A stretch of DNA of 64,000 nt from Candidatus Parcubacteria bacterium (GCA_039796615.1 JBDKJL010000038.1:78033-142032); one strand, 5' to 3'. Shown: positions 33,105-33,789, counted from the stretch's first letter. Notes: generated by a model not told the origin, from the letters alone. Made by a program: numbers and translations.

Positions 33105-33147
33105 GATGGCTCCGGGGGTGGGATTCGAACCCACGACCAAAGGATTA

Positions 33148-33678
33148 CATTTGTCCTCGTGTTTCCACGGGGGATGGACTATATCTTCATCCTGCAAGCA
33201 GGATGTGAGGCGCTTCCCCTTCCTTGTGGAAGAGTACTCCTTGCGGATAGTCTCTGAACCTTCCCTTGCGGGCTTGGCTGCTGATTACCGTTACGATTCG
33301 ATCGATCGCTTTAGGCTTCCAGCAATTCACCTCAAGTTTCAACCGACATTACTGTCGGAAGCTGCGTGATACCTGCGTGCACCTCTCGATGGCAATTGGC
33401 GCAAATGAGAGCGCATTTCGCGATCTCATTCTTGATGCGTTCCCACGATCTTGTTGAGCCATCCGCTGAGACACTGAAGTCTTTTTTGGATGGGTCGAGA
33501 TGGTGGAATTCAAGTGCTTGAGAACATTTATTGTACCCGCAAAGGGCACAAGCACCGCCCTTGTGGGCGATAGCAAGTTCTCGAAGACGCTTGCGTCGTT
33601 TTGCGACGGCCTTCTTGAGGTAATCGGCACGATCGGCATAGGTACGCTTGTCTTTCATGAAAAAAGCGTAACATGTCC
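33148..33678 (-). mobile_element. Group I intron (531 nt) carrying an HNH endonuclease ORF
   Basis: On the RNA strand I see the canonical core elements: P GAAUUGCUGGAAGCC (33328..33314), Q AAUCAGCAGCC (33286..33276), R GUUCAGAGACUAUCC (33259..33245) and S AAGAUAUAGUCC (33187..33176). P pairs with Q (UGCUG/CAGCA) and R pairs with S (GACUAU/AUAGUC). The 5' exon ends in U and the intron ends in G (..ACAAAUG). Confidence 0.85.
33332..33658 (-). CDS. Intron-encoded HNH endonuclease
   Basis: This 108-aa ORF has GGACALCGYNKCSQALEFHHLDPSKKDF...CALICANCHREVH, that is CxxC...HH...CxxCH, the HNH zinc-finger signature. The ATG lies 20 nt inside the intron. The last ~10 codons run into the predicted P1/P2 region. 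Confidence 0.85.
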   Translation of the reverse strand: MKDKRTYADRADYLKKAVAKRRKRLRELAIAHKGGACALCGYNKCSQALEFHHLDPSKKDFSVSADGSTRSWERIKNEIAKCALICANCHREVHAGITQLPTVMSVET

Positions 33679-33789
33679 ACAGTCCTCTGCGCTACCGCTG
33701 CGCTACCCCGGAATGGGTGTTTATTGTGATGAAGGTGCGGCGAAAGGATAGCGAATAATGGCAATGGCGTCAAACGGTGTGATGCCGTT

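Follow-up and report, generated by a model that had tools for sequence, protein, structure and literature searches.

In bacterial tRNA genes, group I introns are classically known from tRNA-Leu(UAA) in cyanobacteria and plastids, tRNA-fMet, tRNA-Ile(CAU) in Azoarcus, and tRNA-Arg(CCU) in Agrobacterium, and belong to subgroup IC3. Here, we analyzed a stretch of 64,000 nucleotides (nt) from a Candidatus Parcubacteria bacterium (GCA_039796615.1, JBDKJL010000038.1:78033-142032), hereafter the window, in which a tRNA-Asn(GUU) gene very likely carries a mobile, self-splicing Asn.4Ug-type group I intron, inserted between U35 and U36 and encoding an HNH homing endonuclease. The classical IC3 introns use the same chemistry, and there too the anticodon stem of the exons aids in positioning the splice sites. 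However, they reside in other tRNAs, at another insertion position, and mostly lack an open reading frame (ORF).

Endonucleases are also known from such introns. The tRNA-fMet intron of Synechocystis PCC 6803, described by Bonocora and Shub in 2001, reportedly encodes the homing endonuclease I-Ssp6803I. It is likewise said to be a bacterial tRNA group I intron whose endonuclease is aimed at the anticodon region of the intron-less gene, but that enzyme is reportedly of the PD-(D/E)XK type rather than HNH, and the tRNA, the insertion position and the host phylum all differ. In phage T4, the ORF for I-TevI is looped out of the group I ribozyme of the td intron and has its own promoter, and translation is known to conflict with ribozyme folding. 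Unlike the intron studied here, td and its relatives lie in protein-coding genes, carry their ORFs in P6 or other loops, and keep the guide outside the coding region.

The window element belongs to a type that is already catalogued, so its kind is not new. In a 2020 preprint (10.1101/2020.01.27.920355), Williams raised the number of bacterial tRNA cases with such introns from the four classical ones to 21, of which 17 are new classes. One of its seeds, Pam37.Asn.4Ug, is a 276-nt intron without an ORF that lies in tRNA-Asn after loop nucleotide 4, with U at -1 and G at omega, the last intron position. The tRNA, the insertion point (U35|U36), the U at -1 and the omega-G are common to this seed and the window intron, whereas only the window intron has a 108-amino-acid (aa) HNH gene in its P1 loop. 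The preprint catalogues introns computationally and, in the parts on which we draw, describes neither the endonuclease nor its overlap with the guide nor the taxonomic spread. The original prediction had suggested that an intron in tRNA-Asn was novel; this fails because the Asn.4Ug class was catalogued in 2020 at exactly this site and because the cassette is widespread.

Other literature touches on the subject briefly. Authors describing complete genomes of the candidate phyla radiation (CPR) remark that some tRNAs carry group I introns and are hard to detect, and that intron-containing tRNAs are needed for a full amino-acid set (PMC8172020); the supplements of that paper hold no tRNA-level detail. 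This remark and the Williams preprint were all that our search on tRNA-Asn group I introns, CPR tRNA introns and HNH proteins in tRNA introns returned. Another paper contains both terms but makes no claim of a tRNA-Asn intron (PMC5733544), and the search found none on the HNH gene, on how it overlaps the guide sequence, or on its distribution.

How widespread is the cassette? A scan of one genome per species yielded at least 586 loci that encode a relative of the HNH protein, of which we analyzed the best 80 (L001-L080). Their hosts are mostly Patescibacteria lineages, together with Acidobacteriota (Pyrinomonadaceae, Blastocatellia) and Omnitrophota, and a few metagenome-assembled genomes (MAGs) carry doubtful automatic labels. 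With introns allowed, ARAGORN called a split tRNA that encloses the ORF in 78 of the 80 loci. A strict template (CUGU, an intron ending in G, UAA, and all stems paired) fits 73 of 81 sequences, and Rfam model RF00028 scored above threshold in 18 of 20 sampled relatives, two of which ARAGORN had missed or mislabelled.

The catalogued seed can be connected to this family through its Acidobacteriota-type members (L073, L054, L064). In the portion of the Williams alignment used here, the seed is 74-78% identical to them (best, 78% over 229 columns), and it shares with them a distinctive P7.1/P7.2 sequence and a module of GCAGC plus a GNRA hairpin. Its identity to the window ribozyme, 70%, is within the range of shuffled sequences in a crude global alignment (mean 63%, maximum 71%); the window intron is tied to the Acidobacteriota-type members by a common HNH protein and architecture. 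Judged from these sequence comparisons, the seed and the present family are probably one lineage. In the seed as given there, GCAGCC with its GNRA hairpin lies approximately 45 nt past the 5' splice site, and the real P1 partner may be this GCAG and not the nearby UGUA drawn in the alignment.

The split tRNA-Asn gene and its uninterrupted counterparts

Positions are counted from the first letter of the window, and (-) marks features on the opposite strand. The gene is laid out as follows, in the direction of transcription.

33679..33712 (-): 5' exon of tRNA-Asn(GUU), sequence TCCGGGGTAGCGCAGCGGTAGCGCAGAGGACTGT, identical to uninterrupted orthologs
33148..33678 (-): group I intron, 531 nt, first base G (33678), last base omega-G (33148)
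33107..33147 (-): 3' exon of tRNA-Asn(GUU), sequence TAATCCTTTGGTCGTGGGTTCGAATCCCACCCCCGGAGCCA, placed by ARAGORN, the family template and empty-site alignment

The 5' exon supplies the 5' strand of the acceptor stem, the D arm, the 5' strand of the anticodon stem, and loop nucleotides C32, U33, G34 and U35, the last of which is U-1. The 3' exon continues with U36, A37 and A38, the 3' strand of the anticodon stem, the variable loop, the T arm, the 3' strand of the acceptor stem, G73, and an encoded CCA (33109..33107). The intron is thus inserted after U35, between anticodon nucleotides 35 and 36. ARAGORN finds zero tRNAs in the whole 64-kb window with default settings; with introns allowed, it labels the genomic stretch tRNA-Asn (gtt) i(35,531). 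Joining the exons gives a 75-mer with a canonical cloverleaf that ARAGORN labels tRNA-Asn(gtt). Only one splice position yields this mature sequence, as every other shift of the intron gives a different product. The tRNA has a U1-A72 pair and discriminator G73, as do 73 of 73 templated relatives. Both features occur in E. coli tRNA-Asn, where they contribute to identity.

Independent evidence for the splice sites comes from loci that have no intron. A metagenome search for the spliced junction yielded more than 120 tRNA-Asn genes that have this anticodon arm and are uninterrupted. Three of them (L218, L267, L273) share 72 of 72 positions with the mature window tRNA; for others the figure is 70-71. 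These three genes and those of L201, L213 and L191 adjoin an rpoD ortholog with 70-80% DNA identity to the window rpoD, and when these rpoD-linked empty loci are aligned to the window with BLAST, the alignment is interrupted exactly at 33147|33148 and 33678|33679. We conclude from these loci that the predicted splice sites are right and that the spliced product corresponds to a normal gene. The same locus therefore occurs with and without the intron, which is optional. Taken with the strong covariation of the ribozyme helices described below, the intron is very probably not only optional but also mobile and active.

These results bear out how the original prediction had read the gene. Both tRNA halves (33712..33679 and 33147..33107) had been placed correctly to the base, and the 75-nt cloverleaf with U1-A72 and G73 forms on joining as described. 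U is the last base of the 5' exon and G that of the intron, at a position that is both unique and marked by exact empty-site breakpoints, and the insertion between nucleotides 35 and 36 agrees with ARAGORN and with the empty-site alignment.

Ribozyme core, guide sequence and embedded endonuclease gene

A search with RF00028 had been proposed as a check on the group I core, whose P, Q, R and S elements had been recognized in the sequence. The match is significant, spanning the full model (1-253) at 33432..33155 (-) with 85.9 bits (E 1.8e-20; gathering score, 50), and it is the sole Rfam match within the window. Its alignment places the four elements in the right order, with P and Q forming P4 (UGCUGG/UCAGCA) and R and S forming P7 (GACUA/UAGUC). 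The elements of the intron are listed below in the direction of transcription.

33332..33658 (-): HNH homing-endonuclease ORF, 108 aa, intact, located in the P1 loop
33362..33366 (-): internal guide sequence C-GCAG, with GCAG (33365..33362) opposite exon C32-U35 and C opposite intron +1
33343..33358 (-): P2 hairpin CCGACA-GUAA-UGUCGG (GNRA), with 5 of 6 pairs varying on both sides and 99.6% of cells paired
33155..33334 (-): catalytic core, from the Rfam alignment and per-helix covariation
33334..33328 with 33212..33206 (-): P3
33324..33319 with 33284..33279 (-): P4
between the two P4 strands (-): P5
33278..33258 (-): P6
33254..33248 with 33181..33176 (-): P7
33247..33238 (-): P7.1
33234..33216 (-): P7.2
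33204..33189 (-): P8
33172..33155 (-): P9

The predicted structure was written onto an alignment of 45 sequences and tested for covariation. Standard pairs occupy 94.5% of cells, compared with 33-46% when the partners are slid, and 28 of the 46 pairs vary on both sides; none of 500 shuffles matched the observed covariation score. P2, P3, P4, P6a and P8 are individually supported by compensatory changes, which also occur in the P7.1 and P7.2 hairpins between P7 and the 3' strand of P3. The window ribozyme retains every helix, each with standard pairs. P7.1 and P7.2 set it apart from the classical IC3 introns, in which P7 is followed directly by the 3' strand of P3, as seen from the gaps in the IC3 rows of the Williams alignment in the portion used here.

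The guide sequence lies 313 nt from the 5' splice site in the window, and U35 stands opposite the G of GCAG, forming the wobble pair required at a 5' splice site. Across the family, a nearly invariant ACGCAGCTTCC is found about 305-344 nt downstream, where it also codes for a conserved T-Q-L-P near the HNH C-terminus, and GCAGCT is kept in 70 of 73 members. Intron position +1 and the base 5' of GCAG form G-C in 54 and A-U in 10 of 70 sequences and mismatch in 6, which is direct covariation within P1. At the other end of the intron, the omega-G (33148 in the window) is G in all 73 templated members. We inspected the 3' exon against the bases 5' of the guide sequence by eye for P10 and saw no convincing conserved pairing.

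The original prediction had overlooked the 108-aa HNH ORF (33658..33332), which accounts for 327 of the 531 intron nucleotides (about 60%). It is placed in the P1 loop because P1 pairs the 5' splice site with C-GCAG some 313 nt downstream. Toward its 3' end, the ORF runs across the guide sequence and P2 and into the first bases of P3, such that its stop codon TGA opens the P3 strand TGAGGTG. The protein matches the phage HNH family phrog_2255 at E 2.3e-31, and among solved structures, its profile fits best to the HNH domain of a group II intron maturase, with McrA next. C37, C40, H52, H53, C86, N88, C89, H90 and H94 are invariant or nearly so in the family, which comprises at least 2399 homologs, and all are present in the window ORF. 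The window protein is 100% identical to hypothetical protein RL141_856 of a Candidatus Parcubacteria MAG.

How might a gene embedded in a tRNA be expressed? In most family members, the ORF starts 6-50 nt past the 5' splice site. We examined the first 20-50 nt of the introns among L001-L080 and found an extended -10 box that fits the strict pattern TGnTAYAMT, most often as TGGTATAAT or TGGTATACT, between the 5' splice site and the ATG in 29 of 68 introns; shuffles of the 68 leaders gave a mean of 0.3 and never more than 3. The modal gap between the end of the box and the endonuclease ATG is 6 nt, and a Shine-Dalgarno-like sequence is present in just 4 of the 68 leaders. This geometry of extended -10 box and ATG suggests that a leaderless endonuclease mRNA is started within the intron. 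An intron-internal promoter of this kind seems to be a new point. The window has a box at the equivalent position, which fits the loose pattern TGNTANNNT only, and the whole gene is flanked by signals that suggest a monocistronic pre-tRNA.

33665..33673 (-): TGTTACGCT, an extended -10-like box of degenerate sequence, 6 nt before the ATG, at the position equivalent to TGGTATAAT/TGGTATACT of relatives
33745..33773 (-): promoter-like site, -35 TTGACG (33773..33768), 17-nt spacer, -10 TATCCT (33750..33745)
33075..33105 (-): hairpin resembling a terminator, with a U run behind it, directly 3' of the CCA, folding at -18.8 kcal/mol (z = -3.5 versus shuffles)

The promoter-like site lies approximately 33 nt upstream of tRNA position 1 and is weak taken alone, as the consensus scan returned one site against a shuffle average of 0.7. 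The hairpin after the CCA is absent from the output of the consensus terminator scan and draws its support from folding. A separate 7-bp hairpin, UACGCUU (33670..33664) with AAGCGUA (33649..33643) (-), would form around the endonuclease start codon (33658), which it might hide in the pre-tRNA.

From these features we infer the following course of splicing, homing and internal transcription. The pre-tRNA would fold, with the anticodon stem contributed by both exons helping to join the splice sites, and exogenous guanosine would attack after U35. The omega-G (33148) would then dock and the exons would be ligated to give the 75-nt tRNA-Asn, identical to the intron-less tRNA of relatives. The HNH protein would cut intron-less tRNA-Asn alleles, and repair would copy the intron in. 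In many members, the endonuclease would be transcribed separately from the extended -10 just inside the intron, as a leaderless mRNA without the 5' exon, and the internal AUG of the pre-tRNA, which lacks a Shine-Dalgarno sequence, would be translated poorly. With the endonuclease on a separate transcript, translation and ribozyme folding would therefore not compete on one molecule.

Alternative readings of the locus

Several observations weigh against a mobile, self-splicing intron that is active in this genome. P1 is short, with four exon pairs and one intron pair. A second copy of CACGCAG (33373..33379 (-)), 13 nt upstream of the guide copy (33368..33362) and not conserved in relatives, could pair with the 5' splice site of this genome instead. 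P7 is invariant in the 45-sequence alignment, and because it never varies, covariation is uninformative there. The HNH protein scores 21.2 bits against Pfam HNH (PF01844), marginally under the cutoff of 21.4, and the internal -10 of the window is degenerate (TACGCT). We tentatively take the ribozyme to be IA3-like, in view of P7.1/P7.2 and of the presumed IA3 classing of related tmRNA introns; P7.1/P7.2 match the lower block of the Williams alignment, which includes tmRNA introns.

Could the split gene instead be a decaying relic, a pseudogene whose intron no longer splices while an intact tRNA-Asn elsewhere does the decoding? The 64 kb of genome examined hold no other tRNA, an intact second copy may lie elsewhere, a possibility that also speaks against the main reading, and the degenerate internal promoter box would be in keeping with decay. 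However, we consider a relic improbable. The exons are identical at 72 of 72 positions to functional-looking uninterrupted orthologs, every ribozyme helix has been kept with standard pairs, and the full-length ORF retains every invariant residue. Moreover, the orthologous rpoD-linked locus in relatives is a tRNA-Asn gene, and the authors of the CPR genomes report that they need intron-containing tRNAs for a full amino-acid set (PMC8172020). A small genome and a tRNA-Asn gene at the orthologous locus of relatives make it likely that decoding of Asn codons in this genome depends on splicing.

It is also improbable, and marginally more so, that intron removal needs protein help, from the HNH protein as a maturase or from a host factor, and is not true self-splicing. 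Since P1 spans approximately 313 nt of coding sequence and no P10 is evident, long-range folding might need assistance. The match of the HNH profile to a group II intron maturase points the same way, although the similarity is confined to the nuclease domain. HNH intron proteins are not known to act as group I maturases, unlike LAGLIDADG proteins; the core of the window intron is complete and canonical; and the ORF-less seed Pam37, probably of the same lineage, as it appears in the part of the catalogue used here, encodes no protein. The remaining alternative, that the split gene is another tRNA such as tRNA-Thr(UGU), has a negligible chance of being correct. It draws on ARAGORN, which with introns allowed labels about 41 of the 80 related loci (among L003-L080) Thr(tgt/cgt) and three (L016, L033, L059) His or Ser, and on the fact that the rule of U-1 and omega-G is likewise satisfied in the 'Thr' loci when the splice site moves by 2 nt. 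In the window, though, the shifted reading puts A at omega, P1 geometry sets the U-G wobble at U35 and not at U33, and uninterrupted orthologs read GUU.

The same comparison led us to reject the idea that the cassette occupies tRNA-Thr, tRNA-His and tRNA-Ser genes besides tRNA-Asn. The 'Thr' junctions have the form gct|GTG...NG|YGtaa; shifting both sites by 2 nt also satisfies U-1 and omega-G and gives anticodon GUU, and the Thr label arises wherever the intron end is G-Y-G. The 'His' and 'Ser' calls reflect false 3' exons, and these loci fit the strict template. All bodies, including those labelled 'Thr', have U1-A72, G73 and a UCC...GGA acceptor stem; the 'Thr' bodies are near-identical to the Asn bodies, and some are almost identical to the window tRNA. 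Because the bodies are tRNA-Asn and the shifted junctions give GUU, the labels are artifacts.

Phage relatives, annotation and surroundings

The closest viral relatives of the HNH protein, with up to 59% identity, are free-standing genes in dense phage tRNA arrays. We analyzed 80 viral loci of 3 kb (L081-L160), each with the HNH match near position 1501, which together hold 491 tRNAs. In 49 of 70 analyzable loci, the HNH gene directly abuts tRNA-Asn(GTT) (odds ratio 16.8, p = 8e-21 versus non-adjacent tRNAs). This adjacency spans 28 array contexts and, with the proteins grouped at 70% identity, 22 clusters, and about 22 of the viral ORFs stop on the conserved U8-A9-G10 (UAG) of the downstream tRNA-Asn. 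The viral contigs contain no ordered R/S core motifs, and 20 of the loci gave no RF00028 match; given these two results, we rejected the many 'intron' calls that ARAGORN made in viral contigs as spurious. In L143, L149, L153, L154, L155 and L159, the Rfam abiF motif (RF03085) occurs just upstream of phage-array tRNA genes at 37-54 bits.

A parallel to these genes is SegB of phage T4, a free-standing homing endonuclease in a phage tRNA cluster whose preferred cleavage site lies inside the tRNA-Asn gene (PMC2330249). However, SegB is a GIY-YIG and not an HNH enzyme, and no intron-borne relatives of it are known from cellular tRNA-Asn genes. Free-standing viral HNH genes that abut tRNA-Asn seem to be a new point. 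Together with the intron-borne genes, they suggest an HNH lineage specialized on tRNA-Asn genes, with a target specificity that both forms would share. Bonocora and Shub are said to have proposed a pathway in which a free-standing endonuclease and an intron with one target site merge into a mobile intron. We tentatively suggest, with slightly less than even confidence, that the two states of this one tRNA-Asn-dedicated lineage, free-standing in large phages and, in Patescibacteria, Acidobacteriota and Omnitrophota, lodged in a group I intron's P1 loop, offer a snapshot of such a merger at one target. The merged element would resolve the clash between translation and folding through its internal extended -10 and leaderless mRNA.

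The split gene matters for how such genomes are read. Small genomes usually have one gene per tRNA, so Asn decoding probably relies on ribozyme activity in them. tRNAscan-SE is not built for group I introns (PMC8450103); default tRNA finders miss the gene, and such genomes will therefore seem to have no tRNA-Asn. When introns are allowed, ARAGORN assigns about half of the related loci to tRNA-Thr by mistake, and the endonuclease is annotated merely as a hypothetical protein. Combined, these errors bear on completeness estimates and claims of a reduced translation machinery in Patescibacteria. The family also makes available hundreds of naturally occurring versions of a compact ribozyme that has its guide within protein-coding sequence, along with an HNH nuclease that is a candidate for tRNA-Asn specificity and has free-standing relatives in phages.

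The genes that neighbor the split tRNA are ordinary chromosomal genes, namely dnaG, rpoD, an MGS-like ORF and a gene for a PEBP-family protein. The MGS-like ORF (217 aa, 33864..34517, -) lies between the tRNA and rpoD in the window. In L218, L267 and L273, tRNA-Asn is only about 85-115 nt from rpoD, and the MGS-like ORF is therefore absent from these loci.

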